Below are positions 2,099-64,000 of a stretch of DNA of 64,000 nucleotides, piece after piece. Location of the stretch: contig DOSJ01000010.1 of assembly GCA_003514005.1 (NCBI GenBank), positions 39,425 to 103,424 on the forward strand. Reading direction: 5' to 3'. Origin of the DNA: Candidatus Falkowbacteria bacterium. Lineage in GTDB: Bacteria > Patescibacteriota > Patescibacteriia > Patescibacteriales > UBA12075. A model generated the notes under the pieces. The model did not search any database. It saw only the letters and a list, made by a program, of their open reading frames with translations, and was not told where the DNA came from. Each line of letters opens with the position of its first letter. The stretch's first letter is position 1. The position numbers were made by a program, and so were the translations under genes.

Positions 2099-3580
<1,482 letters not shown>

Positions 3581-3810
3581 CTAGGGAGAATGGCTCTGAG
3601 TTCAAAGTTTGAAAGTTAAAAGTTATATAGTTATTTCGATAATTCTATACTTTGAAACTTTCTACTTTATAACTCCTAGCCGTCGACACTTCTTTCCACT
3701 TTTTAAACAGTGTATGTTTAAAAAGATGAAGTGCTGGAACAGAATTTATTCTGGTTCAGGATTAAAAGTCTTTGCCTCTAAGTGAGTGGCAAAGCAAACC
3801 GGTTGTAAAA

Positions 3811-3832
3811 AAGTTGGCGCCTGCTAGCCCCA
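3811..3832 (+). other. 3' half of the 16S precursor processing stem
   Basis: AAGTTGGCGCCTGCTAGCCCCA. Its reverse complement matches 1932-1954. Confidence 0.6.
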
Positions 3833-3889
3833 AATCATTCCGCGAAAAAGCGGAAACGGTTTTATGGGGCCGTTCTTTGATTTAAAAGC

Positions 3890-3934
3890 AAAAAAGATTG
3901 GTCCTTACTTTGTACGAGCCAATCTTTTTTGTTT
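3890..3934 (+). terminator. Intrinsic terminator downstream of the 16S gene
   Basis: Stem AAAAAAGATTGG / CCAATCTTTTTT with a 17-nt loop, followed by TTTTGTTT. Confidence 0.5.
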
Positions 3935-3963
3935 GGACCACAAATCAACGAATCGATCACAAA

Positions 3964-3992
3964 TTCACAAATATTTATAATTATACTATAAT
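3964..3992 (+). promoter_or_regulatory. Sigma70-type promoter of the tRNA cluster (TTCACA-17 nt-TATAAT)
   Basis: TTCACA at 3964-3969, a 17-nt spacer, then a perfect TATAAT at 3987-3992, about 55 nt upstream of tRNA-Ile. Confidence 0.5.
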
Positions 3993-4048
3993 AATCCCAA
4001 AGCCTTGTACCACGTTGGGGCATGCCCCGCGTAGCCAAAGGCGAAGTG

Positions 4049-4122
<74 letters not shown>

Positions 4123-4128
4123 CAGAAT

Positions 4129-4197
4129 AATTTATGATTTTAGATTTAGGATTTATGAAATATTTATATCATATATCCTAAATCCAAAATCATAAAT
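4129..4197. repeat. AT-rich inverted repeat filling the tRNA-Ile / tRNA-fMet spacer
   Basis: Arms TTTATGATTTTAGATTTAGGAT and ATCCTAAATCCAAAATCATAAA face each other. Confidence 0.6.
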
Positions 4198-4202
4198 ATC
4201 AT

Positions 4203-4275
4203 AGCGGGGTAGAGCAGTTGGCAGCTCGCCAGGCCCATAACCTGGAGGCCGTCGGTTCGAATCCGACCCCCGCAA
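4203..4275 (+). tRNA. Initiator tRNA-Met (anticodon CAT)
   Basis: Aligns arm by arm with E. coli tRNA-fMet (GCGGGG-T-GAGC...GCTC...CATAA...GTCGGTTCGAATCCGAC-CCCCGCAA). Position 1:72 is an unpaired A:A. No encoded CCA. Confidence 0.8.
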
Positions 4276-4281
4276 CAAATT

Positions 4282-4356
4282 CAATTAAAAATTAAGAATT
4301 AAAAATTAAGAATTAATTGCTCGAATTATTAATTCTTAATTTTTAATTCTTAATTG
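4282..4356. repeat. AT-rich inverted repeat filling the tRNA-fMet / tRNA-Phe spacer
   Basis: Arms built from AATTAAAAATTAAGAATT words and their complement, around a central GCTCGAATTATT. Confidence 0.6.
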
Positions 4357-4368
4357 ATAATTGACGGC

Positions 4369-4440
4369 GCCTCGGTAGCTCAGTGGTAGAGCATGCGACT
4401 GAAAATCGCAGTGTCGTCAGTTCAATTCTGACCCGGGGCA
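4369..4440 (+). tRNA. tRNA-Phe (anticodon GAA)
   Basis: Acceptor GCCTCGG/CCGGGGC, D arm GCTCAGTGGTAGAGC, anticodon stem-loop TGCGA-CTGAAAA-TCGCA, T arm GTCAGTTCAATTCTGAC. Confidence 0.9.
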
Positions 4441-4520
4441 CAAGGAGTTTTCGATTGACGATTTTCGATTTACGAATGTTGAAATATCAATAAATCGGAA
4501 ATCGGAAATCGTAAATTACC

Positions 4521-4591
4521 CGGGGTGTCGTATACCGGTAGTACGCATGGTTTGGGACCATGTTGACTGGGTTCAATTCCCAGCACCCCGA
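4521..4591 (+). tRNA. tRNA-Pro (anticodon TGG)
   Basis: Acceptor CGGGGTG/CACCCCG, anticodon stem-loop CATGG-TTTGGGA-CCATG, T arm CTGGGTTCAATTCCCAG. Confidence 0.85.
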
Positions 4592-4599
4592 CAGACAAT

Positions 4600-4730
4600 A
4601 ATTTTCAATTTTAAATTTTAAATTTTTAAACAATTTTAAATGATTTAATTTTCAATGCTTTAAATAAAAAAAATTAATCATTAAAAATTTTCTCATTCAT
4701 TAAAAATTTAAAATTAAAAATTAAAAATTC
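4600..4730. repeat. AT-rich inverted repeat in the tRNA-Pro / tRNA-Gly spacer
   Basis: AATTTTCAATTTTAAATTTTAAATTTTTAA at the left is roughly complementary to TTAAAAATTTAAAATTAAAAATTAAAAATT at the right. Confidence 0.45.
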
Positions 4731-4736
4731 TCCTCT

Positions 4737-4809
4737 GCGGGTATAGTATAGTGGCTTTTTATGCTAGCCTTCCAAGCTGGAGAGACGGGTTCGATTCCCG
4801 TTACCCGCT
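4737..4809 (+). tRNA. tRNA-Gly (anticodon TCC)
   Basis: Acceptor GCGGGTA/TACCCGC, anticodon stem-loop CTAGC-CTTCCAA-GCTGG, T arm ACGGGTTCGATTCCCGT. Confidence 0.85.
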
Positions 4810-4817
4810 CAAATAAC

Positions 4818-7016: not shown

Positions 7017-7046
7017 TTATATAAATTTCTTTAAGCATTTTCATCT

Positions 7047-7183
7047 TGTCATTCCCGCGAAGGCGGGAATCTCGGTAATAAAGTAAGTAAACAAGAAGTA
7101 TAAAAAATGTTTTTATAAAAAATTTTACAGAAAAATTATTTTGTTATTTTAACACCAAGATTCCCGCCTTCGCGGGAATGACA
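7047..7183. mobile_element. MITE-like element, copy 1 (TGTCATTCCCGCGAAGGCGGGAATC terminal inverted repeats)
   Basis: Left end TGTCATTCCCGCGAAGGCGGGAATCTCGG, right end CCAAGATTCCCGCCTTCGCGGGAATGACA. 137 bp, lying between infB and rbfA. Confidence 0.75.
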
Positions 7184-7222
7184 AATACTAGATAGCTTTA
7201 ATTAAAACTAAAATTATAATCC

Positions 7223-11560: not shown

Positions 11561-11591
11561 TTTTTATACTATCTATATATTCCCTATACTT

Positions 11592-11729
11592 TGTCATTCC
11601 CGCGAAAGCGGGAATCTTGGTTTTAAAACAACGAGATACTTCTTTAGTAAAATTGATATAAAAACACCTTATAAATTTATTTGTTTATTTATTTTTTTTA
11701 CCGAGATTCCCGCCTACGCGGGAATGACA
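11592..11729. mobile_element. MITE-like element, copy 2
   Basis: TGTCATTCCCGCGAAAGCGGGAATCTTGG ... CCGAGATTCCCGCCTACGCGGGAATGACA, 138 bp. Track ORF 11529-11741 is a spurious translation of it. Confidence 0.75.
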
Positions 11730-11773
11730 AGATATTTTTAAATAGTTCAATTAAACTTGATGCATTCGTGTTC

Positions 11774-14504: not shown

Positions 14505-16160
14505 TTATTTTAATTTCTTTTCCATATAAGTTTCATGCAATCGATAGCCTAATTTTCGATAATAACCGCGCACCCCTACCCCTGATATTATTTTTAATAT
14601 ATCATAATTTTCATTTTTTGCAATCTCCTCCGCCTCCCCCAACAATATCTTCCCCAACCCCGCATGCTGAACCTTTTTCTCGCCCCCAACCGAAACCAGC
14701 TCGCCATAAACATGCAGCTCACGAACAATCGCCAACCCCTCATCAACCAATCGCAACCGACAAAATCCCAATAGTTTATCTTCCTTTGAAACTGCTTGAA
14801 TAAAATACTCCTTACCGCCTGAAGCATTATAATTAATAATATTAAATCGAAAATCGAAAATCGAAAATCGAAAATCACCAACTTCCCTACACCGAATACA
14901 CCGACAAACAACCCCCTCATCTTGCATCACCTGCCGCAAATTTGTTATCTTATTCCCAGCAACAATCGATTCACCTGGAATATCCCGAATCAAACGAATA
15001 ATACGAACATATTCCGGCGTTATTTTTTTACACTTAATAATCAACTCACGCAATTGTTTATCTGTATATGGTTTATACTTCCCTTGTTTCCACCAATGAT
15101 AAAGCAAAGAGCCCTTGGTGACAACACAAGGATAAAACTTTATCTGATCCGGCTGAAAACGCTCATCGGTAAAAAGTTGCCGATACATCTTGAAATCACG
15201 CGCCGGCGTTGACCCTGGCAATCCAGGCATTATATGATAAGTAACCTTAAATCCATAATTTTTTAATAAAGCAGTCGCATCCGCGATTTCCTTTACCCCA
15301 TGCCCGCGCTTATTCAGCTTCAAAATCTTATCATCAAGGTGCTGCACCCCAAGCTCCACCCGCGTACACCCAAACGTACGCATCTGTAACAACTCTTCAT
15401 CACAAATATAATCCGGCCGCGTCTCAAGAGTCAAACCAATAATCTGATATTTAGTATTTTCATTCTTCTTCTGTTCTTTTATTAATAAATTTTTTAATTC
15501 TCCTCTTGTCATTCCCGCGAAGGCGGGAATCTTGGTTATAGGCGAAATGGCTTTTTTTTCACCAAGATTCCCGCCTTCGCGGGAATGACAAAATTGGTTT
15601 GCGGCCGCAAAAAGATTCAACACATACCAATACTTATACTTCTCCGGCAAATAAGACCACGTCCCCCCGATAACAATCAACTCAATCTTCGTCGGCTCAT
15701 GCCCATTATTAATCAAAGCCCGCAAACGATCTTGGACTTGAACAAACGGATTATAACCACAACGTATCGCCCGCATCACCGCTGGCTCATTCGAAAGATA
15801 GCTCTGCGGCACGTCTTTTTCAGTTGGGCAATACGCGCATTTTCCCGGGCAAGGATAAGGCTTGGTTAAAACCGCAACCGGCGCGATACCCGACATAGTC
15901 CGCACCGCACGCTTTCGCAAAAGTTTTTTTAATAAGGGGTTCAACCCCTGCGCCAGGGTTTGAACCCCTTTTATAATCTCCGCATTACTAAAAATATCCA
16001 ATCCATACTTCTTGGCTATTTTACGTTTTACAAGCATTAAATCTTTACTGTCAGCAATTTTAGCAGACAACAATTCTTTAATAGCTTCTTCAATTTTTTC
16101 ATTAATATCTTTCATAATACTTTCTAGCACTAGATTAACACTCAGAAAATCATTAGTCAA
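14505..16160 (-). CDS. Elp3-like radical SAM / GNAT acetyltransferase (tRNA U34 modification family)
   Basis: 551 aa. Elp3-type radical-SAM cysteine motif CPGKCAYCP followed by PQSYLSNEPAVMRA, and a C-terminal GNAT region QHAGLGKILLGEAEEIA. The start may instead be the ATG at 16115 (MKDINEK). Confidence 0.75.
   Translation of the reverse strand: MTNDFLSVNLVLESIMKDINEKIEEAIKELLSAKIADSKDLMLVKRKIAKKYGLDIFSNAEIIKGVQTLAQGLNPLLKKLLRKRAVRTMSGIAPVAVLTKPYPCPGKCAYCPTEKDVPQSYLSNEPAVMRAIRCGYNPFVQVQDRLRALINNGHEPTKIELIVIGGTWSYLPEKYKYWYVLNLFAAANQFCHSREGGNLGEKKAISPITKIPAFAGMTRGELKNLLIKEQKKNENTKYQIIGLTLETRPDYICDEELLQMRTFGCTRVELGVQHLDDKILKLNKRGHGVKEIADATALLKNYGFKVTYHIMPGLPGSTPARDFKMYRQLFTDERFQPDQIKFYPCVVTKGSLLYHWWKQGKYKPYTDKQLRELIIKCKKITPEYVRIIRLIRDIPGESIVAGNKITNLRQVMQDEGVVCRCIRCREVGDFRFSIFDFRFNIINYNASGGKEYFIQAVSKEDKLLGFCRLRLVDEGLAIVRELHVYGELVSVGGEKKVQHAGLGKILLGEAEEIAKNENYDILKIISGVGVRGYYRKLGYRLHETYMEKKLK
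14844..14876. repeat. 7-nt tandem array (AAATCGA x4.7) inside the Elp3-like CDS
   Basis: AAATCGA repeats at 14844, 14851, 14858 and 14865, plus a partial unit. It encodes DFRFSIFDFRF. The same array occurs at 23113-23143. Confidence 0.85.
15507..15590. mobile_element. MITE-like element, copy 3 (84 bp, in frame inside the Elp3-like CDS)
   Basis: TGTCATTCCCGCGAAGGCGGGAATCTTGG ... CCAAGATTCCCGCCTTCGCGGGAATGACA. It is 84 bp (28 codons) and is translated as ..CHSREGGNLGEKKAISPITKIPAFAGMTRG.. Confidence 0.8.
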
Positions 16161-24114: not shown

Positions 24115-24306
24115 AAATTGAGACTTGAGAAAAGTTTTTTTTCTGTCATTCCCGCGCAGGCGGGAATCTTGGTTAAAAAATCACTTAACATTTTATAATA
24201 ACGTTGGCTAAAAAATCTTTAGCTCAAAAATCAGTTTTTCTTTTTTTTAAACCGAGATTCCCGCCTGCGCGGGAATGACAAGAGTTTTTTTCTCAAGTCT
24301 CAAATT
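24115..24306. mobile_element. MITE-like element, copy 4 (137-bp core 24144-24280 plus outer inverted repeat)
   Basis: The core has the TGTCATTCCCGCGCAGGCGGGAATC ends, and its internal sequence is nearly identical to copy 7 (52930-53065). The outer arms are AAATTGAGACTTGAGAAAA / TTTTCTCAAGTCTCAAATT. Confidence 0.75.
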
Positions 24307-24418: not shown

Positions 24419-24797
24419 AAACCTTTACGAAACGGACAAAAAAAGAATACATGGCTTTTTTCAAAATAAAAAGGAGCCCAACGGGGCCCCCTTCTTTTTT
24501 ATATAAAAAAATGAATTTATGGGGTCTATATGTTGAGCTCCATCCCTAAGAATTATTTGATACATTTATATGTAATATAAATTTTCTCAGGGCAAATGGA
24601 ACTACTTCCTAACTTTAGTAGTTAATATTCACCGATTGGTAGTAATCCCAAATAATTTTTTTTATATTATATTCAGAACTACTGTTTTTTTTGTTTTTGT
24701 TTTTGCTTTTTTGTAAAGGCCTGTCAGGACTGGCCGATAACCAGTGAATAATATGTTGTTAAATAACATCTACAATTAATATATCATATTTTTAGAC

Positions 24798-24822
24798 TTA
24801 AGTCAACGATATCCTAGACTTA
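24798..24822 (+). promoter_or_regulatory. 25-nt motif copy C0 (TTAAGTCAA-CGA-TATC-CTAGAC-TTA)
   Basis: Aligns with five other copies of the consensus WTAAGTCYA-N3-AAAC-STRGAC-TTA. This is the most degenerate copy. Confidence 0.45.
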
Positions 24823-24874
24823 AATTATTATCTAATATAAGACACGAAAATCTAATTAATAATAGTTATCAACA

Positions 24875-24899
24875 ATAAGTCCAGGTAAACGTGGACTTA
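24875..24899 (+). promoter_or_regulatory. 25-nt motif copy C1 (ATAAGTCCA-GGT-AAAC-GTGGAC-TTA)
   Basis: Perfect 8-nt inverted repeat TAAGTCCA/TGGACTTA with an 8-nt spacer. Confidence 0.6.
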
Positions 24900-24920
24900 A
24901 AGTATTATTTTCAATAATTT

Positions 24921-24950
24921 TTATCCACATTTCCACAGTTTTTATCCACA
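24921..24950 (+). promoter_or_regulatory. Two perfect DnaA boxes (TTATCCACA) plus one degenerate box in direct orientation
   Basis: TTATCCACA at 24921-24929 and 24942-24950, with ATTTCCACA at 24929-24937. Confidence 0.6.
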
Positions 24951-24966
24951 TCATAGTCATATGAAC

Positions 24967-24991
24967 TTAAGTCTAATAAAACGTAGACAAA
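24967..24991 (+). promoter_or_regulatory. 25-nt motif copy C2 (TTAAGTCTA-ATA-AAAC-GTAGAC-AAA)
   Basis: Aligns position for position with the other copies. Confidence 0.55.
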
Positions 24992-25018
24992 ACCCCGCCC
25001 TTCGCGAAGGGCGGGGTT
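24991..25018. terminator. GC-rich hairpin downstream of tRNA-Cys
   Basis: AACCCCGCCCTTCG / CGAAGGGCGGGGTT. On the minus strand it is followed by TTTTGTC. Confidence 0.6.
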
Positions 25019-25025
25019 ATATTTG

Positions 25026-25096
25026 AGGTCTGGAACGGATTTGAACCGATGATGGCAGTTTTGCAAACTGCTGCCTTACCACTTGGCTACCAGACC
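25026..25096 (-). tRNA. tRNA-Cys (anticodon GCA)
   Basis: The minus strand reads GGTCTGGTAGCCAAGTGGTAAGGCAGCAGTTTGCAAAACTGCCATCATCGGTTCAAATCCGTTCCAGACCT. The anticodon loop is TTGCAAA. Confidence 0.85.
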
Positions 25097-25775: not shown

Positions 25776-26231
25776 TCAACCTGGCGGCAATGAACCCCCC
25801 GTACCTCCTCCCGCATCTCCCTTACTATCTCCAAACGGCAAAGCCTTGAATACAAATGCGGTTATAGCATAGGCTGATACGATAATAACAAGTCCAATAA
25901 TCGCTTTTTTGATTGTTTCTTTAGCTGTCGTAACCTTTTGCTCTTCTCCTCCAGCCGTCATCCAAATAAAACCGGCATAAATCATTAATATTATAAAAAT
26001 AATAGCGAGTAATCCCAAAAACGCTTTAATTACTATTGAAATAATTTCACCAAGCTCGGCACCGTCGCTGTCGCCAATATTAAATCCTGAGCTTTTAGCA
26101 AATTTCCCCATCAAACTTTCTCCACCGACAACTTCATTCGGATCATTCAACGGTCCTGCCAGAGAAGTGCCTACAAAAAAACTAAAAGAGATAATAATAA
26201 TAGACAAACTTATCAAAATATATTTTCGCAT
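25776..26231 (-). CDS. VirB2/TrbC-like pilin-family small membrane protein, paralogue 8 (Gly-rich C-terminal tail)
   Basis: 151 aa. Signal peptide, then two TM helices around the conserved loop YAGFIWMTAGGEEQKVTTAKETIKKAIIGLVI. The tail is GDSKGDAGGGTGGSLPPG. Confidence 0.7.
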   Translation of the reverse strand: MRKYILISLSIIIISFSFFVGTSLAGPLNDPNEVVGGESLMGKFAKSSGFNIGDSDGAELGEIISIVIKAFLGLLAIIFIILMIYAGFIWMTAGGEEQKVTTAKETIKKAIIGLVIIVSAYAITAFVFKALPFGDSKGDAGGGTGGSLPPG

Positions 26232-26241
26232 CTTTTTAAAA

Positions 26242-26616
26242 TTAATTTAATAACTTAAATAATACAAAATTACTAATCGCATACGAGCCAACGGTTATAA
26301 TTAATCCGATAATCGCGCGTCGAATCGTGCTTAATGCCTTATCTACCTTTGACTGATCGCCCGCCGCAATCATATAATTGTACCCGGCGTAAAGCATCAA
26401 AACTACAAATATTATTCCCAGTATCGAAAAAAATATGCTTACGATTTTACCTGCGTTTGTAACTAAATCGTTTTCGCTTGTAACGCCGGAATAACCGCCC
26501 TTAACCCCAACATCACTTAGCTTGTCTAAAGGTGACTGCGCAAATACAAAATATGGTAAAATTAAAACTACCACAAGACACATTAACACAAAAATATTTT
26601 TGATTTTAGTTTTCAT
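26242..26616 (-). CDS. VirB2/TrbC-like pilin-family small membrane protein, paralogue 7
   Basis: 124 aa, same architecture (YAGYNYMIAAGDQSKVDKALSTIRRAIIGLII). Confidence 0.7.
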   Translation of the reverse strand: MKTKIKNIFVLMCLVVVLILPYFVFAQSPLDKLSDVGVKGGYSGVTSENDLVTNAGKIVSIFFSILGIIFVVLMLYAGYNYMIAAGDQSKVDKALSTIRRAIIGLIITVGSYAISNFVLFKLLN

Positions 26617-26632
26617 TTTTTTATTTTTAGTT

Positions 26633-27079
26633 TTATAAATTTAAATCCGGTTCGCTTTCTTCCCAGCTAGAGTCATTTTTAAACACATCTTTTGTAACAT
26701 TTTGAATGACAAAAAAAGAAATCGCATAAGCCAAAACTATAACAACTACACCAATAACAGCGGCGGTTATCAAGTTTTTTGCTCTTGTCACTTCCTGTTC
26801 ATTATCACGCGCCATCATCCAGATATATCCGCCATAAATCATTAAGATTAAGAATATAACTCCCAAAATTGATAATACAACACTGATTATTTTTGCAATC
26901 ATACTTTCTGCGCTTACACCTGTATCGTAACCACCGGAAACTGCAACTGTATTTGCATTACCAAACGCATCTTTAAGATCTTGTGCATGTGCCACAAAAA
27001 CAAAGCTTAGGCTGCACAATACAATAAATATGTCAACAAATATTTTTTTTTGCTTCAAAAACATATATTTATTACGCAA
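26633..27079 (-). CDS. VirB2/TrbC-like pilin-family small membrane protein, paralogue 6
   Basis: 148 aa (YGGYIWMMARDNEQEVTRAKNLITAAVIGVVV) with an acidic C-terminal tail. Confidence 0.7.
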   Translation of the reverse strand: MRNKYMFLKQKKIFVDIFIVLCSLSFVFVAHAQDLKDAFGNANTVAVSGGYDTGVSAESMIAKIISVVLSILGVIFLILMIYGGYIWMMARDNEQEVTRAKNLITAAVIGVVVIVLAYAISFFVIQNVTKDVFKNDSSWEESEPDLNL

Positions 27080-27080
27080 A

Positions 27081-27467
27081 TCATTTTAATAAATTCTCAC
27101 CTACAAAATTCGTTATCGCATACGCGGCTATTACTATTACAAGTCCGATTAGGGCATTGCGAATAATATCTTTAGCCCTGGTTACCTCTGACTCAACCCC
27201 TCGCGAGTTCATCCAGATAAAACCACCCCAGATAGTAAAGATTAAAAACAAAACGCCGATTATCGATAAAAGAATCTGGATTAAAAGTCCGACCGAGCCC
27301 AAGGCGCCTAGTTTTGATATTTTTGAGCCTAAGTGTCCGGTTCCTTCCGCAGTTTTTTCAAGGCTATTATTAAAAATCGATTTTGCATCTTCGCCCTCTG
27401 CTAACACAAATGAAATATTTATAAATAACAAAAAACAAATTATTCCAATTGTAAATATTCTCTTCAT
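27081..27467 (-). CDS. VirB2/TrbC-like pilin-family small membrane protein, paralogue 5
   Basis: The internal ATG at 27467 (MKRIFTIGIICFLL) gives a signal peptide and removes the overlap with paralogue 4. Loop: WGGFIWMNSRGVESEVTRAKDIIRNALIGLVI. Confidence 0.7.
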   Translation of the reverse strand: MKRIFTIGIICFLLFINISFVLAEGEDAKSIFNNSLEKTAEGTGHLGSKISKLGALGSVGLLIQILLSIIGVLFLIFTIWGGFIWMNSRGVESEVTRAKDIIRNALIGLVIVIAAYAITNFVGENLLK

Positions 27468-27474
27468 AAAAATT

Positions 27475-27876
27475 TTATAACAATTGTTGTCCAATAAATT
27501 GTGTGATCGCATAGGCCGCCAAAACAACCACAAGCCCGATAATCGCGGCCTGAATCAAATCCTTGGCTTTTGTAACCTCGCCTTCATTTCCGCGAGCAAT
27601 CATCCATATAAATCCGCCATATATCATTAGTCCCAAAAACAAAATACCAATCAAAGAAAGACCAACACCGATTACTTTTCCAATCGCGCTGGGTAAGCTT
27701 GCCATGCCACCATCCGGTATTTTCCCATAACCTTTTTTAGCGGCTTCATCAAGCCCAGTAATTGCGCTGGAATCAACCGCCATAGCCATAGGTAAAACAA
27801 AAACAAAAAACAGTAAAATAATAAATAATATTCTTACGATGTTTTTTTTATTCTTTATAATTCCCGTCATGTTCAT
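27475..27876 (-). CDS. VirB2/TrbC-like pilin-family small membrane protein, paralogue 4
   Basis: 133 aa (YGGFIWMIARGNEGEVTKAKDLIQAAIIGLVV). Confidence 0.7.
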   Translation of the reverse strand: MNMTGIIKNKKNIVRILFIILLFFVFVLPMAMAVDSSAITGLDEAAKKGYGKIPDGGMASLPSAIGKVIGVGLSLIGILFLGLMIYGGFIWMIARGNEGEVTKAKDLIQAAIIGLVVVLAAYAITQFIGQQLL

Positions 27877-27937
27877 TAATCGAAAACAGATAATAGCAAA
27901 ATAAGCAAGCTATTATCTGTTAAAATACAAAATGATT

Positions 27938-28339
27938 TTATAAATCGCCATTAATTGCGTCGGCAGACATATTTATTACAAAATTCACGATTGCAAAGGC
28001 GGCAATAATAACTACAAGTCCAATAACTCCGGCGATAATAATACTTTTCGCTTTTCCAACACGATCATCATTCCCGGCAGCCGTCATCCAAACAAAACCT
28101 CCGTACAAAATTATAACTACGGCAATAATTCCTAAAAAGGTAATCAAATATTTAATAATCGTTACTGCCATATCCCGAACATCTTCATCTGCCGCAGCCG
28201 GCAAACCGACATTTTCTGCATACTTTATTCCTAATGACTCATCTAAAGATTGTGCTTGGCTTAAGTTTGCTTGAAAAAATAAAGAAAAAACACACAAAGA
28301 TACAATTGTAGCGACTAAATACTTTTTAAAAGTAAGCAT
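27938..28339 (-). CDS. VirB2/TrbC-like pilin-family small membrane protein, paralogue 3
   Basis: 133 aa (YGGFVWMTAAGNDDRVGKAKSIIIAGVIGLVV). Same subtype as paralogues 1 and 2. Confidence 0.7.
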   Translation of the reverse strand: MLTFKKYLVATIVSLCVFSLFFQANLSQAQSLDESLGIKYAENVGLPAAADEDVRDMAVTIIKYLITFLGIIAVVIILYGGFVWMTAAGNDDRVGKAKSIIIAGVIGLVVIIAAFAIVNFVINMSADAINGDL

Positions 28340-28376
28340 ATTTTTAAATTTTTCTAAATAAGTAGCTGTAATTATT

Positions 28377-28754
28377 TTAAATGTTTCCGCTTATCGCGTC
28401 ATTAGTTATATTAACGATAAATGTAATTATTGCAAATGCCGACAATATAACTACTAGTCCGATTGCGCCGGCAATTATGATTTTTTTTGCGTCTTCAACA
28501 CTATCCTGATTTCCGGCAGCAGTCATCCATTTAAAACCTCCGTATAATATAATCACAACGGCAATAATTCCCAAAAATGTCATAAGATATTTAACGATTT
28601 CAACCATCATCTGTTTTGGGTCTGTTTCTGAAGCTACTTGCAAATCTAAATTTTCAGCATAATCCAGACCAATATCTTGCGCGCTCACCGGAATAATATT
28701 AATTAAATTTAAAAAAATTATTAAAATCGCTAATACGGTTTTAAAGAATGTCAT
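28377..28754 (-). CDS. VirB2/TrbC-like pilin-family small membrane protein, paralogue 2
   Basis: 125 aa, very close to paralogue 1 (SAQDIGLDYAENLDLQ...ITNDAISGNI). Confidence 0.7.
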   Translation of the reverse strand: MTFFKTVLAILIIFLNLINIIPVSAQDIGLDYAENLDLQVASETDPKQMMVEIVKYLMTFLGIIAVVIILYGGFKWMTAAGNQDSVEDAKKIIIAGAIGLVVILSAFAIITFIVNITNDAISGNI

Positions 28755-28870
28755 AAAATTGTATTGTTAATTATTATTTAGTCCACCCTTATGGCAATAT
28801 TTTTTTATTGCCATAAGGGTGGATCCCTAGAATTCTAGAGGGACCCACGATATTTTGCGAATTACAGGTT

Positions 28871-29260
28871 TTAGATGTTTCCGCTCAAAGCATCATTTGT
28901 AATGCCAACAACGAAAGTAACGATTGCGAATGCGCACAAAATAATTATCAAGCCGATAACACCGGCGATAATTAATTTTTTTGCCTCAGCAACCTTGTCT
29001 TCGTTTCCAGCCGCAGTCATCCATTTGAAACCACCCAACAATATTACTACAACAGCGATAATACCCAAAAAAGTCATCAAATACTTGACAATGTCTACAG
29101 CCATTTGCTTAGGATCGGATTCGTTAGCTGCCTGTAAATCAAGGTTATTAGCATAATCCAAACCTATATCTTGCGCTGATACCGGTAATATAGCCATTGT
29201 TGAAAACAAAAAAACCATAACTATCGCCGCAAAAATATTTCGAAATAAATTTTTATTCAT
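28871..29260 (-). CDS. VirB2/TrbC-like pilin-family small membrane protein, paralogue 1 (likely major subunit)
   Basis: 129 aa. It is the only array member inspected that has a strong Shine-Dalgarno sequence (GGGGAGGTGA 6 nt before the ATG), and it is followed by a 16-bp perfect hairpin. Confidence 0.75.
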   Translation of the reverse strand: MNKNLFRNIFAAIVMVFLFSTMAILPVSAQDIGLDYANNLDLQAANESDPKQMAVDIVKYLMTFLGIIAVVVILLGGFKWMTAAGNEDKVAEAKKLIIAGVIGLIIILCAFAIVTFVVGITNDALSGNI

Positions 29261-33815: not shown

Positions 33816-33827
33816 ATTTTAAATTAA

Positions 33828-33975
33828 AATGTAAATCTCAAAATGTAAAATGACAATTTAAAGTTTAAAATTAATTATTGCATATTAACATCAATATATA
33901 AATCGATTTTATTTATTGTTAATAATTATTTAATATACATTGTCATTTTACATTTTGAGATTTACATTTTACATT
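33828..33975. repeat. Long AT-rich inverted repeat (about 30-bp arms, about 85-nt centre)
   Basis: AATGTAAATCTCAAAATGTAAAATGACAAT ... ATTGTCATTTTACATTTTGAGATTTACATT. An arm fragment recurs at 61712-61735. Confidence 0.7.
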
Positions 33976-34040
33976 TTATTCGACTTATCAACAATTGACG
34001 AAAAGCAAAATATTTGCTACAATACTATTATGTGACTTAG

Positions 34041-34065
34041 ATAAGTCCACAAAAACCTAGACTAA
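34041..34065 (+). promoter_or_regulatory. 25-nt motif copy A1 (ATAAGTCCA-CAA-AAAC-CTAGAC-TAA)
   Basis: Its first 17 nt match copy B2 at 16 of 17 positions. It ends 19 nt upstream of the 34084 start codon. Confidence 0.55.
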
Positions 34066-34083
34066 AACAAAAATAAAAACAAA

Positions 34084-34425
34084 ATGACAATAAATACTTA
34101 CGTTTCCCCGATTAATGAGACAGCTACAAAATCACAAATCGGTTGGAAATATTACAATAGCATAAAAAAGAAAGCTTTGGAAAGTGAGTTCAGCTTGTCT
34201 GGACTTATACTAAGTATTTCCATTGCTTTTTTTATTGTGCTGATTACTGCTTACAGTTTGTCATTATTGCATACATCTTATAAAAATACCCAGATTCAAA
34301 ATACTATAAACAAAAACATTTATAGCCTGGAAAAATTCCATACAGAATCGGGTGTCTATTATATACAAGAAAATTTAATTGATCTTTCAAAAACCGAAGA
34401 TTCGGCAAATAATTTATTGGCCTAA
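34084..34425 (+). CDS. Hypothetical single-pass membrane protein
   Basis: 113 aa with a central TM helix. No recognisable family. Confidence 0.5.
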   Translation: MTINTYVSPINETATKSQIGWKYYNSIKKKALESEFSLSGLILSISIAFFIVLITAYSLSLLHTSYKNTQIQNTINKNIYSLEKFHTESGVYYIQENLIDLSKTEDSANNLLA

Positions 34426-38619: not shown

Positions 38620-38677
38620 ACTGCCATAAAACTACAATGAGACCTGAGAAATACTTTTTTAAAAAATATTTTTCACC

Positions 38678-38749
38678 TGTCATTCCCGCGAAGGCGGGAA
38701 TCCAGATTCGATTGATAAACCCTGGATTCCCGCCTTCGCGGGAATGACA
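38678..38749. mobile_element. MITE-like element, copy 5 (short, 72 bp)
   Basis: TGTCATTCCCGCGAAGGCGGGAATCCAG ... CTGGATTCCCGCCTTCGCGGGAATGACA. An outer inverted repeat TGAGACCTGAGAAA / TTTCTCAAGTTTCA flanks it. Track ORF 38576-38776 is spurious. Confidence 0.75.
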
Positions 38750-38810
38750 AAAAAAGGAGTTTTTCTCAAGTTTCAATTTATTATTTTATAATAGTTTTGT
38801 AAAAACCAAA

Positions 38811-47669: not shown

Positions 47670-47768
47670 TAACTCATTTATATTAAAATATATTTTGTGA
47701 CTTAGGCCAAAAATGAATGGTTCTTTCGGCAATTCTGTGGACAAATTTTTAAACACTTTTCCTCTACT

Positions 47769-47799
47769 TGTCATTCCCGCGTAGGCGGGAATCTTGGTT
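47769..47799. mobile_element. Solo terminal repeat of the MITE-like family (copy 6, half element)
   Basis: TGTCATTCCCGCGTAGGCGGGAATCTTGGTT has no partner end nearby. A fragment of the 188-bp element end (GACTTAGGCCAAAAAT) lies next to it at 47700-47716. Confidence 0.65.
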
Positions 47800-47893
47800 T
47801 AACAATAACAAAATATTTTATCCATAAAATTATCTCAAAAACTAAATATAACTTTATTAATTGTTCTTTGTCAGTTTACCGAACAAACCCGTT

Positions 47894-52823: not shown

Positions 52824-52929
52824 ATTTTTATTTGCTTATTCTGCGCGTTTTTCACAACACACATTATAAGTTATTTAAATTGTTTATAAAAAATTGTAAT
52901 TTAAAATTTAACAAAAAACATTTTTATCT

Positions 52930-53065
52930 TGTCATTCCCGCGTAGGCGGGAATCTTGATTAAAAAATTACTTAATATTTTTTAATACTGTTGGCTAAAAA
53001 ATCTCTAACTTAAAAATTAGTTTTTCTTTTTTTAAACCGAGATTCCCGCCTACGCGGGAATGACA
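52930..53065. mobile_element. MITE-like element, copy 7
   Basis: TGTCATTCCCGCGTAGGCGGGAATCTTG ... CCGAGATTCCCGCCTACGCGGGAATGACA. Its internal sequence is about 85-90% identical by eye to copy 4. Confidence 0.75.
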
Positions 53066-53190
53066 TGGGGTTATTCTCGAATCTCAATTTATAATCTTAT
53101 CAACTATAATAATATAATATTTACAAAAAAAACGCAAACATTTAACACTTTATTTGACTTGTTCGCTTTTTGTTTGCCTAATCTAAGTGA

Positions 53191-53958: not shown

Positions 53959-54411
53959 TTATTGAAACCATGAGGAATTAAAAATATTTTTTGTCGCTTC
54001 AATGCCCATGGCCTTGGCTGTAAAATTGATTATCGTATAGCTGGCAAAAACCACCAGTAAACCGATAACCGCTCCAATTATTGTATTTTTTCCTCGTTCA
54101 ACCAATGATTTGTTCCCGGCAGAAACCAGAAACATAACTCCGCCAGCCACAAATGCCAAAAGCGCCAAAGCGCCGACAATACCTAAAATAATTTTCGATA
54201 TCCTAACCAAAAGTTCTAAAACATCATTAACTTGATAATTACCACAATATTTTTTACACGCATCATCACTGCATGTTGAACAGTCTCCAGTGAAAGTATT
54301 CGCATCCAAAACGGTAGTCGGCGTCGGATCTGCACTTACAAAAACTGGTAAAAAACAAAACAAAAAAAACAACACGATAATTATACTATTAAATATTTTT
54401 TTTATTCTCAT
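53959..54411 (-). CDS. VirB2/TrbC-like pilin-family small membrane protein, paralogue 9 (Cys-rich N-terminal region)
   Basis: 150 aa. Same two-helix core (AGGVMFLVSAGNKSLVERGKNTIIGAVIGLLV), preceded by GDCSTCSDDACKKYCGNY. Confidence 0.65.
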   Translation of the reverse strand: MRIKKIFNSIIIVLFFLFCFLPVFVSADPTPTTVLDANTFTGDCSTCSDDACKKYCGNYQVNDVLELLVRISKIILGIVGALALLAFVAGGVMFLVSAGNKSLVERGKNTIIGAVIGLLVVFASYTIINFTAKAMGIEATKNIFNSSWFQ

Positions 54412-59353: not shown

Positions 59354-59542
59354 TTATTATTAGTTTCTATTTTTTAAATTTTTAATAAAAAAGTGATAAC
59401 ATTAAAATAACATTATCACCTTATACTATTGCCCTGCCTTAAGTCAAGTTCATATTCCGTTCATAAACTGTGTCTAAACCCATAATATTTGTGGAAAACA
59501 CAGTGGAAAAGCAATGAATAACTATTTAATACTATTTATTTT

Positions 59543-61460: not shown

Positions 61461-61611
61461 TGTCATTCCCGACACTCCTTGCCCCCGGCAGGGAATAGAT
61501 ATTAAATGATCGGGAATCCAGGGATAATAGATTCAAATATCTTAACAAGTTAGCCTAATTTAAAACATTAAGTGCTTTTCCTACTGGATTCCCGCCTTCG
61601 CGGGAATGACA
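61461..61611. mobile_element. MITE-like element, copy 8 (degenerate left end)
   Basis: TGTCATTCCCGACACTCC... at the left and TGGATTCCCGCCTTCGCGGGAATGACA at the right. Confidence 0.6.
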
Positions 61612-61667
61612 AGAGGAGAACAGTGTTTAATATTTACCCGCAAAAATGTCGGAAAACAATAAAAAAA

Positions 61668-61695
61668 CAAAAACTTTGTTATAACAAAGTTTTTG
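61668..61695. terminator. Perfect palindromic hairpin downstream of trxB
   Basis: CAAAAACTTTGTTAT / ATAACAAAGTTTTTG. Confidence 0.6.
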
Positions 61696-61749
61696 TACTT
61701 CAAATATCATTTTGCATTTTGAGATTTACATTTTAATTTAACCACAATA

Positions 61750-62712
61750 CTACTGACTCTTCTCAACTAAACTGCGATCATAAACCATCTGCTCGCCTTT
61801 GCCCTGTTTTAACTGCAGATACTGATACGCGGCCAAAGCCGCGACAGTCGCGTCCCCCATCGCAATCGTTATCTGTTTAAAGTTTCCGGCAGTAACATCC
61901 CCGGCCGCAAACATCCCCGGTGTCTTGGTTGTACGGCGCGGACCCGCTATTATTTGTTTTGTCTCGTCACGCTCCACTAAATCCGCGACTAAATCAGTAT
62001 GCGCGATTCTTCCGATTTCCACAAAAACACCATCAACCAAAATTTCTTTTTCAACATTATTTTGCTTATCCAATATTTTAATTTTTTCTACTTTGTCCTT
62101 ACCGCTAATTTCCAATATTTCCGAATTTAAAACCAGTTCTATGTTCTCCTTGTTTTTAACTTCATTAATCAATGCTTCAAAAGCCTTAAACTCTTCCCGC
62201 CGATGCACAAGATAAACCTTTTTTGCAATCTTTGACATAATTTCCGCTGCATCCAAGGCTGCATTTCCACCGCCGGCAACAGCCACGATTTTATCGCGAT
62301 AAAAAGGCCCGTCGCAATTTGCGCAATACGATACGCCCTTGCCGCCAAATTCGCTTTCGCCAGGAATACCAAGCCGCCGTGGAATCAAGCCCATAGCAAT
62401 AATCACTGTTTTTGTCTCAAATTTCTCTTTTTCCGTATACAGAACGAAGGAGTCGTCTGCTAAATGCTCAATTTTTTTAACCTCGCTAATTTTGATTTCC
62501 ACACCCAATCCGCTTACCTGCTCTTGCATTTTTGAAATCAATTCATAACTATCGATTTTTTTAAACCCCGGATAATTTTCAATTTCCGAAGCCAAGGCCA
62601 CTTGCCCACCCGGCTCTTTAGCAATTACCAAAGTTTTCATTTCCCGACGCGCGGCATAAATTGCAGCCGTAAAACCTGCCGGCCCGGCGCCGATTATTAT
62701 AGTATCATACAT
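61750..62712 (-). CDS. trxB: Thioredoxin-disulfide reductase
   Basis: 320 aa. FAD motif IIGAGPAG, redox CxxC motif CANC, NADPH motif GGGNAA. Confidence 0.9.
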   Translation of the reverse strand: MYDTIIIGAGPAGFTAAIYAARREMKTLVIAKEPGGQVALASEIENYPGFKKIDSYELISKMQEQVSGLGVEIKISEVKKIEHLADDSFVLYTEKEKFETKTVIIAMGLIPRRLGIPGESEFGGKGVSYCANCDGPFYRDKIVAVAGGGNAALDAAEIMSKIAKKVYLVHRREEFKAFEALINEVKNKENIELVLNSEILEISGKDKVEKIKILDKQNNVEKEILVDGVFVEIGRIAHTDLVADLVERDETKQIIAGPRRTTKTPGMFAAGDVTAGNFKQITIAMGDATVAALAAYQYLQLKQGKGEQMVYDRSLVEKSQ

Positions 62713-62838
62713 ATTTTTTAAATATTATTTTATAAACAAAGTATCACCATCTAAGCACAGCACATCTCAACATTATCAACACTTATCCCCGATTTATACA
62801 CACAAACTTTAAATTTAATATTAGCCATTTGGACACAT

Positions 62839-62863
62839 TCTGTCCACGTTTCTGTGGACTTAT
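62839..62863 (-). promoter_or_regulatory. 25-nt motif copy B2 (ATAAGTCCA-CAG-AAAC-GTGGAC-AGA)
   Basis: Read on the minus strand; about 130 nt upstream of the trxB start. Confidence 0.6.
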
Positions 62864-62884
62864 CCCCTAGTGCACTATTTTATT

Positions 62885-62909
62885 TAAGTCCACGTTTTTT
62901 TAGACTTAT
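62885..62909 (-). promoter_or_regulatory. 25-nt motif copy B1 (ATAAGTCTA-AAA-AAAC-GTGGAC-TTA)
   Basis: Read on the minus strand; 46 nt upstream of copy B2. Confidence 0.6.
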
Positions 62910-63082
62910 CTTTAGTATCGTTAAATAAAATTAATTTTCTCAGTTTAAAAAATTACTTCCACATAGAACTTTTTTTCTTACTATATCTTACGTCCTTGTT
63001 ATTTATTATAAAGGATTTGAAATAAAAAGACAATCAGTATGTTTTATAAAATTATTTTACTCACTTTACACACACCATATAG

Positions 63083-63176
63083 CAGGGATTTATAAGATTT
63101 ATATGATTTTTTTCTTTTGGGAATAGGTAAAATAAAAATCTAAAAAAGAACCATATAAATCTTATAAATCCCTGCA
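63083..63176. repeat. Inverted repeat with about 26-bp arms
   Basis: GCAGGGATTTATAAGATTTATATGATT ... AACCATATAAATCTTATAAATCCCTGC. Confidence 0.65.
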
Positions 63177-63311
63177 AAAACAAACAGTAATATTCAGTAG
63201 ACGGGAAATTTATTATTTGTTGTGTAGTTAGAGTTAACAAAATGAGAAATATTATTATATTATAAAAATGATTCGAGTCTTTCTTGTGATCTAAAAATCT
63301 CCAAAAGGGGA

Positions 63312-63587: not shown

Positions 63588-63980
63588 ATTTATTAAACAA
63601 TTATATAGCTTTAAAAATTATTTTCTGTTTTTTTTACTTCCTTGTCTTTATAGTTTATTCGCTGATTTACGCGGATGTAAACGCGGATTGACGCAGAAAA
63701 TGTATTTAATAACTAATTTTTAATTATTAGTTCTTTGTGGAACTGTTTTGAATATTTTTTTGTGGGTGGGGCGATAGTTAATAATCTCTAATGACGTGCT
63801 TTAAATAATTACCTAAATAGGGGACAGACTATATTTAATTATTCTCATCAGTAATAATCTGACTTAATTCAGCTAATATTAGGCTTAAATATAAATTTTA
63901 TATTTATATTCTACAAATACATTCAATATTAGCTAAAAATACATCTTATATTTAATATAAGCCACTATTTTCAATAACTG

Positions 63981-64000
63981 TGCCCTCGAGAGGAATTGAA
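63981..64000 (-). tRNA. 3' end of a tRNA gene truncated by the window edge
   Basis: The minus strand reads TTCAATTCCTCTCGAGGGCA: T-loop, 3' T-stem, acceptor 3' strand and discriminator. The anticodon is not visible. Confidence 0.4.

Follow-up and report, generated by a model that had tools for sequence, protein, structure and literature searches.

What is the role of an inverted repeat that recurs between the genes of Candidatus Falkowbacteria bacterium? The 64-kb stretch of contig DOSJ01000010.1 analysed here (hereafter the window) contains six copies at three loci, which adjoin trxB, the gene of a structured RNA and a gene for a small membrane protein. An earlier note on this DNA had described them as a 25-nt motif with three possible explanations: the operator of a dimeric transcription factor, a lineage-specific arrangement of DnaA boxes or a recombinase site. 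Our analysis favours the first, which is supported by conservation at orthologous promoters, overlap with promoters and a candidate helix-turn-helix (HTH) gene that is preceded by 2-4 copies. Thus, the motif is probably the operator of a Patescibacteria-wide transcription factor, most likely a small, autoregulated winged-helix protein of ~90 amino acids (aa).

Six palindromes in intergenic DNA

The window has a G+C content of 37.5% and carries a 16S rRNA gene, arrays of type IV secretion system (T4SS) pilin paralogs and other features typical of the Patescibacteria (candidate phyla radiation, CPR). The six copies reported earlier were all recovered at their coordinates, and all are intergenic (Table 1). 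A search of the whole window with TAAGTCYANNNAAACSTRGAC, allowing ≤3 mismatches, returned 8 matches, which correspond to the six sites, two of them matched on both strands; in dinucleotide shuffles of the window, 0.20 matches were expected and at most 2 occurred. Intergenic DNA makes up 17.6% of the window, yet it holds 6/6 of the palindromes and 5/5 occurrences of the pattern GTCYA-N8-TRGAC. Moreover, when 71.6 kb were scanned with a 26-bp weight matrix derived exclusively from the sites of other genomes, exactly these six were recovered, at 22.7-30.4 bits, the next-best match scoring 5.1 bits. The six repeats are real, non-random sites.

Table 1. Coordinates of the palindromes and of the features that surround them in the window (promoter elements are putative).
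Feature	Position	Strand	Score or basis
Palindrome, distal copy, trxB promoter region (TTAAGTCCACGTTTTTTTAGACTTAT)	62884..62909		29.7 bits
Palindrome, proximal copy, trxB promoter region; its half-site gives the -35 box	62838..62863		22.7 bits
Palindrome, degenerate proximal copy (GTCAA...TAGAC), RNA-gene promoter	24798..24823		30.1 bits
Palindrome, middle copy, RNA-gene locus	24875..24900		30.4 bits
Palindrome, distal copy, adjoins tRNA-Cys terminator	24967..24992		23.2 bits
Palindrome between putative promoter and start codon of the 113-aa membrane protein	34041..34066		27.7 bits
trxB, thioredoxin-disulfide reductase, downstream of two copies	61750..62712	-	Pfam Pyr_redox_2, E = 1.3e-48; homolog names
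Putative -35 box TGGACA, one arm of the proximal palindrome	62841..62846	-	read from sequence
Putative -10 box TAATAT, inside conserved GCTAATATTA element	62818..62823	-	kept in L013, L019, L023, L028
TTATCCCC box, DnaA-box-like (one mismatch), abuts proximal palindrome	62860..62867	+	second copy 62783-62790
Conserved structured RNA, ~300 nt, with own intrinsic terminator 24468-24491	24465..24771	-	nhmmer, alignment, folding
Putative sigma-70-type promoter of the RNA gene: TTGACT (24801-24806), 17 nt, TATATT (24778-24783)	24778..24806	-	read from sequence
Two consensus DnaA boxes TTATCCACA, 24921-24929 and 24942-24950, with TTTCCACA between	24921..24950	+	flanked by palindromes
tRNA-Cys, then terminator 24991-25018	25025..25096	-	
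Predicted membrane protein, 113 aa, no family match	34084..34425	+	
Putative promoter TTGACG-17 nt-TACAAT	33995..34023	+	read from sequence

The conserved unit

A logo of the half-site, drawn from 98 non-redundant sites of related genomes, reads TTAAGTCYAC. The search did not demand the TTAA flank, which is nonetheless 79-95% conserved, and the unit is therefore a 26-bp palindrome, TTAAGTCYAC-N6-GTRGACTTAA. Hence the inverted repeat of the earlier description stands, while its length of 25 nt falls short of what is conserved. The position frequencies of the half-site also admit GTCTAG and GTCTAA. The polarity towards genes that had been read from an AAAC in the spacer does not hold across genomes: the sites that precede the candidate regulator gene lack the AAAC, which faces either way relative to trxB depending on the genome and, at the 24.8-kb locus of the window, points away from the regulated unit (the RNA gene). 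Copies within clusters are mostly 45-80 bp apart, with peaks at 55, 62 and 77 bp and no clean helical periodicity. A CRISPR array was considered and rejected, as the loops differ between copies and copy spacing ranges from 32 to >100 bp.

A further locus had been noted at 59440-59510, as a half-site with two boxes. Half-site-like words are indeed found at 59439-59510 (TTAAGTCAA and GTCTAA, ~30 nt apart, beside two TTTTCCAC words, upstream of the gene of a Big_13 surface protein). However, they are in direct orientation and do not match the matrix as a full site.

An inverted repeat with arms of 8-10 bp and a loop of 6-8 nt could also be a hairpin, acting as a stem-loop in RNA (for termination, processing or stability) or spreading as a mobile repeat of the repetitive extragenic palindromic (REP) or miniature inverted-repeat transposable element (MITE) kind. 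Some copies would be transcribed, such as that at 34041, which would lie in a 5′ leader; the arms within loci are complementary slightly more often than expected (see below), and the window does hold an unrelated family of long hairpin repeats. Against this, the Y/R position is non-complementary in 39% of 320 sites, the copies are not followed by a T-run, and they occur upstream of promoters and in both orientations. Moreover, the bases of the motif, and not pairing alone, are conserved from Falkowbacteria to Shapirobacteria. A mobile repeat fits poorly too, as the flanks between copies are not conserved and positions are kept at orthologous promoters. We regard a hairpin function as highly improbable.

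Distribution in other genomes

A genome collection with one genome per species was scanned, and the loci obtained are numbered with the prefix L. This gave 44 motif loci, ~30 of them with Patescibacteria-type gene content. The latter include metagenome-assembled genomes (MAGs) that are titled "Gammaproteobacteria" and encode T4SS-pilin arrays and a trxB product 58-66% identical to that of the window. These MAGs of "uncultured Gammaproteobacteria" (L008, L010, L016, L019, L020, L022, L025, L026, L039, L041, L042, L044, L049), which carry the pilin arrays, the window-like trxB and the locus of the candidate regulator (HTH_17/ECF, described below), are probably mislabelled.

In the Patescibacteria-type loci the palindrome forms clusters of 2-11 copies, often interleaved with TTATCCAC(A) or TTATCCCC boxes. 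Clustering of the flanking genes showed three recurrent contexts, namely trxB/trxA, a module of tRNA and RNA gene, and a gene of the HTH_17 family. A scan of metagenomes with the bare palindrome frame yielded at least 120 loci, for which all counts are among the matches listed. Of 130 motif clusters, 41 precede an HTH_17 gene (at a median of 16 nt from its start codon), 34 the RNA gene, 5 trxB and 3 a bactofilin gene. The phylogenetic footprinting proposed in the earlier note thus gave a positive result, with sites kept at orthologous promoters in many Patescibacteria genomes. Viral contigs contained only 6 single matches, 4 of which are the same coding sequence; these were set aside as chance or unrelated. 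Beyond the window, a further 7.5 kb and 10 kb were read; neither dnaA nor a regulator gene nor any additional site was present.

These placements bear on whether the palindrome is the target of a site-specific recombinase or integrase, akin to att, dif or attC sites. Its central spacer would suit such a role, several clusters lie just 3′ of tRNA genes, and an integrase gene is found ~1 kb from the trxB sites of L183. However, the window holds no recombinase gene, the copies are tandem and multiple at each locus, the spacer sequence varies, and placement on the promoters of housekeeping genes is kept across many genomes. The recombinase site suggested in the earlier note has therefore found no support, and we consider it extremely improbable.

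A candidate regulator

At five loci of the genome scan, 2-4 copies lie 3-65 nt upstream of a gene for an HTH_17 protein of about 90-100 aa, which is divergent from an operon for an extracytoplasmic function (ECF) sigma factor. The co-occurrence of an HTH regulator, one of the checks named in the earlier note, is thus borne out, the HTH_17 gene recurring just downstream of the copies. Among the metagenome loci listed, 47/47 genes of the family have at least one site upstream and 44/47 at least two. With 2-4 copies ending a median of 16 nt before the start codon, autoregulation is therefore implied. No other DNA-binding family recurs beside the sites in the gene content of the metagenome motif loci.

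Seven further loci (~137 kb) were fetched by homology to the HTH_17 protein alone, independently of the motif. All seven have the divergent ECF sigma gene, and in 6/7 the ~520 bp upstream of the HTH_17 gene hold 2-3 palindromes, all but two of which lie within 230 bp. Apart from the sites upstream of the gene, the ~137 kb contain no match to the motif.

A gene order conserved in Patescibacteria, HTH_17, divergent ECF sigma, DUF5667, methyltransferase and a ~1200-aa protein, was observed in L008, L012, L014, L022, L026 and L051-L060. The DUF5667 protein is a probable anti-sigma factor, and the ~1200-aa protein has no family match. The ECF sigma/DUF5667 operon has its own promoter of autoregulatory type (TGTAAC-N16-CGTAT), separate from the palindromes, and on this ground an ECF sigma promoter was rejected as an identity for the motif.

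The HTH_17 protein family comprises at least 496 sequence clusters, nearly all unnamed; where a source is named, it is Patescibacteria or Falkowbacteria. A precomputed PF12728 match is attached to many homologs; the candidate itself matches TIGR01764 at 18.6 bits, below the cut-off of 28.8 bits. An AlphaFold model (predicted local distance difference test, pLDDT, 81) has a winged HTH with a beta-alpha-alpha-beta-beta core, and the closest solved structures are Xis, BldC, RacA, GlnR, MtaN and DNA-binding domains of the MerR family. A sequence search of the PDB with the candidate found no relative.

Putative promoters at the trxB, RNA and membrane-protein loci

All promoters described here were read from the sequence. 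With respect to these putative promoters, the sites either overlap -35 boxes or fall between promoter and start codon.

The two copies upstream of trxB, placed about 130-190 nt away in the earlier note, lie 127-197 nt before its start codon. The proximal arm, TGGACA, is 17 nt upstream of TAATAT, and the corresponding geometry, T(G/A)GAC(A/T)-17 nt-TAAT(A/G)T or TAGTTT, precedes trxB in L013, L019, L023, L028 and L041. Boxes of the TTATCCCC type adjoin palindromes in L013, L016, L023, L037 and L049. The motif adjoins trxB in nine loci of the genome scan; L011, L020 and L044 have one copy each, with its end 13-26 nt ahead of the trxB start codon.

A palindromic element like GCTAATATTAGC was also seen around this locus (window 62815-62830, 63868-63885 and 63920-63935) and in L013, L019, L023, L028 and L039. 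It holds the putative -10 box TAATAT at trxB promoters, and two further copies lie in a 1.7-kb non-coding stretch beyond tRNA-Ala. An inverted repeat with ~25-bp arms and a 50-nt loop (63060-63190) is situated between tRNA-Ala and the trxB sites.

At 24.8 kb, the cluster precedes a conserved RNA. The segment 24450-24750 (minus strand) has nhmmer homologs in 9 genome loci and, among the matches listed, 34 metagenome loci. All of these have a palindrome cluster 58-460 nt upstream of the segment, which is read away from the cluster; the counts come from motif-selected loci only, and loci fetched by means other than the motif contain no copy of the RNA. An alignment (A1) supports 42 base pairs, 28 with compensatory changes, the folding z-score is -5.1 and the 3′ end is a conserved intrinsic terminator. 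A search of Rfam gave no family match for the RNA, only miRNA-like noise on an unrelated long hairpin. Homologs were noted in L009, L017, L033, L035, L036, L038, L039, L046, L049 and L050 besides the metagenome loci; a stretch of AAAAACAAAAACAAAA is invariant in them, and GGGGCTCAG may pair alternatively with CTGGGCCCC, in competition with the terminator stem.

The order of tRNA, terminator, palindrome/DnaA-box module and RNA gene is conserved, and the arrangement palindrome, box, ~20 nt, box, palindrome recurs in L009, L016, L017, L024, L036, L038, L046 and L049. Judged from its sequence, the 24.8-kb locus is probably the promoter of the ~300-nt RNA and not an origin, because the arm of the degenerate copy supplies a perfect putative -35 box, TTGACT, in an arrangement identical to that of L049. 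The DnaA-box region in which three copies had been placed is confirmed as to its boxes, but not as an origin by GC skew, which does not change at 24.8 kb. Eight T4SS-pilin paralogs stand in tandem nearby (25776-29260), with a separate copy at 53959-54411, and these arrays recur on the flanks of the RNA-gene module in L024, L038, L049 and L050.

The boxes invite the reading that the palindromes belong to a replication origin, as sites of an origin factor or as weak inverted DnaA boxes acting with the TTATCCACA boxes. Consensus or near-consensus boxes are interleaved with palindromes at the RNA-gene and trxB loci of many genomes, and the half-site GTCCACA has 6-7 bases in common with DnaA-box variants. 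In several of the nine trxB loci the gene is 4-5 kb from dnaN-dnaA-rnpA-yidC (the trxB/trxA locus of L011, L020 and L039 lies 4-5 kb from dnaA-dnaN), and L039 has 9 copies and 2 boxes in a 1.5-kb non-coding stretch. In addition, a minimum of cumulative GC skew and a switch of gene strand occur at 63-65 kb, beside trxB, when the window is extended through L056. However, the three loci of the window fall within 38 kb and cannot all be origins, and the array of L039 precedes the same RNA gene. Right of 64 kb, the mean skew of about +0.05 for plus-strand genes is nearer to the value expected from coding-strand bias alone than to that of a replichore switch. A dnaA gene is absent within 7.5 kb and the boxes at 63-65 kb are weak, so that the evidence leans against an origin there. 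Furthermore, the half-site TTAAGTCYAC does not fit the DnaA 9-mer TTATCCACA (TTWTNCACA), and many half-sites (GTCTAG, GTCTAA) lack the CACA core of the DnaA box. The DnaA-box arrangement proposed in the earlier note is not upheld: the TTATCCACA boxes, which accompany the palindrome at two of the three types of locus and are absent at the HTH_17 gene, are elements distinct from it. An origin function for the palindromes is, in our view, very unlikely.

The third locus has a single copy close before the membrane-protein gene, as had been described, ending 18 nt (earlier given as 19) from the start codon and covering about +12 to +37 of the putative promoter. No homolog of this gene was found in any fetched locus, and it is a lineage-specific target.

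A model for the operator and what weighs on it

We favour an operator at which a dimer of the HTH_17 protein would bind each palindrome, its recognition helices reading the GTCYA cores 13 bp apart and its wings contacting the TTAA flanks. With arms serving as -35 boxes and a site at +12 to +37, binding would therefore overlap core promoter elements. Repression would be most plausible at the 34084 gene and at the gene of the protein itself. The dyad is centred near -40.5 at trxB and the RNA gene, and there the protein may act by occlusion of the -35 box or by activation of the class-II type, and DnaA may co-regulate the RNA gene through the conserved pair of boxes.

Several observations weigh against this model. 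The association with DnaA boxes is tight at two locus types and is not explained by a simple operator. Complementarity between arms, in a lineage-controlled comparison, was observed 178 times against 166 expected (p about 0.01). When trxB loci were fetched by homology alone, only 1 of 3 had the motif, and control of trxB is therefore lineage-restricted. The match of the candidate to the Pfam HTH_17 profile (E = 1.7e-4, 22.2 bits) is below the gathering score of 27 bits. One of the seven homology-fetched HTH_17 genes (1/7, L059) has no site. Finally, no homolog of the HTH_17 protein or of its ECF partner was found in the ~82 kb of this genome that were examined, and the presence of the regulator in this organism is therefore assumed.

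The last two points also speak for an operator of another regulator, encoded elsewhere, for which the HTH_17 gene would merely be one more target. The HTH_17 protein is a putative binder, assigned by co-localisation only; no homolog of it is seen near the sites of the window, and L059 has none of the sites though the same assembly has 11 elsewhere (L039). On the other hand, HTH_17 is the only DNA-binding family that recurs beside the sites, the densest and closest clusters are those at HTH_17 genes (47/47 of those listed), and no further site occurs around the seven genes fetched by homology. Another regulator is on balance unlikely.

The link to DnaA boxes could also be given more weight in a bolder form of the model, with the winged-helix protein and DnaA acting together on palindrome/box arrays as an origin-proximal control region, and the protein being a master regulator across the Patescibacteria. 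If true, replication status would be coupled to thiol-redox homeostasis (trxB/trxA) and to a phylum-wide RNA of ~300 nt, by a logic like that of CtrA or Spo0A built from an unrelated protein of the excisionase fold. We consider this quite unlikely.

Two other identities were tried and rejected. A LexA box does not apply, as no site is found upstream of recA, and the palindrome cannot in general be a sigma-70 promoter, although TTAAGT-17 nt-TAAATA can be read at the regulator gene, since most copies in the clusters cannot be promoters.

Comparison with known systems

A small winged-helix regulator with a palindromic operator is a well-known kind of system, of which the present pair would be a new member. 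The literature was searched for the motif, for DUF5667 and for regulons of Patescibacteria, and neither the motif nor the protein family nor the RNA was found to be described. Among the close parallels are TnrA/GlnR of Bacillus (TGTNA-N7-TNACA), likewise small winged-HTH proteins with a MerR-like fold; a GlnR-DNA complex is among the structural matches. Their operators also have palindromic 5-nt cores about 12-13 bp apart, with several sites per promoter, and overlap the -35 box or sit downstream of the start site. However, the candidate has no detectable sequence similarity to TnrA/GlnR and no tail that interacts with glutamine synthetase, and its family is confined to Patescibacteria. The palindrome differs in its half-site, its longer TTAA flanks and a regulon of trxB, the RNA gene and the regulator's own gene.

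The best structural matches of the candidate are in the Xis/BldC/RacA group (HTH_17), with E = 7e-3 for Pukovnik Xis and target-normalised template modelling (TM) scores of 0.57-0.76. RacA also binds many palindromic sites. In contrast, BldC and Xis bind direct repeats head-to-tail whereas the sites here are inverted repeats, and unlike an excisionase the candidate has no recombinase partner, its gene being chromosomal, conserved and paired with an ECF sigma operon. Classical MerR promoters have the dyad between -35 and -10 with a spacer of 19-20 bp, whereas here the spacers are 17 bp and the dyad lies near -40.5.

Some likeness also exists to the controlling inverted repeat of chaperone expression (CIRCE), the HrcA operator (TTAGCACTC-N9-GAGTGCTAA), as a long inverted repeat (arms of 9-10 bp, spacer of 6-9 bp) that overlaps the promoters of stress genes and keeps its sequence across very distant lineages. 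The sequence, the family of the binding protein and the regulon differ, however, and CIRCE itself, found upstream of groES or dnaK, was rejected because sequence and spacer do not agree and no chaperone genes stand beside the sites. The paired consensus TTATCCACA boxes, ~20 bp apart in the same promoter regions, recall DnaA as a transcription factor, but they are separate from the palindrome, which occurs without boxes at the HTH_17 gene. Similarly, CtrA (TTAA-N7-TTAA) and Spo0A place the sites of one regulator at many promoters, possibly including origin-proximal DnaA-box regions as here, but the candidate has no response-regulator domain and the link to an origin is unproven in the present case.

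To our knowledge, almost nothing is known of gene regulation in the Patescibacteria, as the majority are uncultured and have genes for very few regulators. The pair proposed here, with its candidate binder, is concrete, testable and conserved from Falkowbacteria and Parcubacteria to Shapirobacteria. It would give a first outline of a regulon, consisting of the regulator's own gene beside an ECF sigma system, a conserved RNA gene and, in some lineages, thioredoxin reductase or thioredoxin. Also gained are a structured RNA, conserved and without an Rfam match, and its promoter with conserved DnaA boxes. Since a protein of ~90 aa and a site of 26 bp are involved, in vitro tests of the prediction would need no culture of the organisms.

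Other features of the window

The window encodes a GH1 protein (292-1521) whose identical sequence, with the same gene neighbours, is found on DNEU01000002.1 of assembly GCA_003487185.1. Positions 2099-4810 hold the 16S rRNA gene and, after it, five tRNA genes, for Ile, Met, Phe, Pro and Gly. The window lacks a 23S rRNA gene, and the rRNA genes therefore appear unlinked.

A family of long self-complementary repeats, 70-86% identical to one another, lies at 24119-24303, 52915-53087, 7044-7184, 11591-11739, 47767-47841, 38662-38776, 15503-15593 and 61561-61615. Most are in the gaps just after genes and give spurious miRNA-like matches to Rfam; they look like a MITE/REP-like element or bidirectional terminators. 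A further long inverted repeat at 33819-33980 has arms in common with a copy at 61691-61741. At the right-hand end, another tRNA-like gene on the minus strand crosses the window boundary (63985-64000 and beyond, L056), and past it come ~7 kb of small hypothetical genes, 28% G+C and all on the plus strand, up to the end of the contig.

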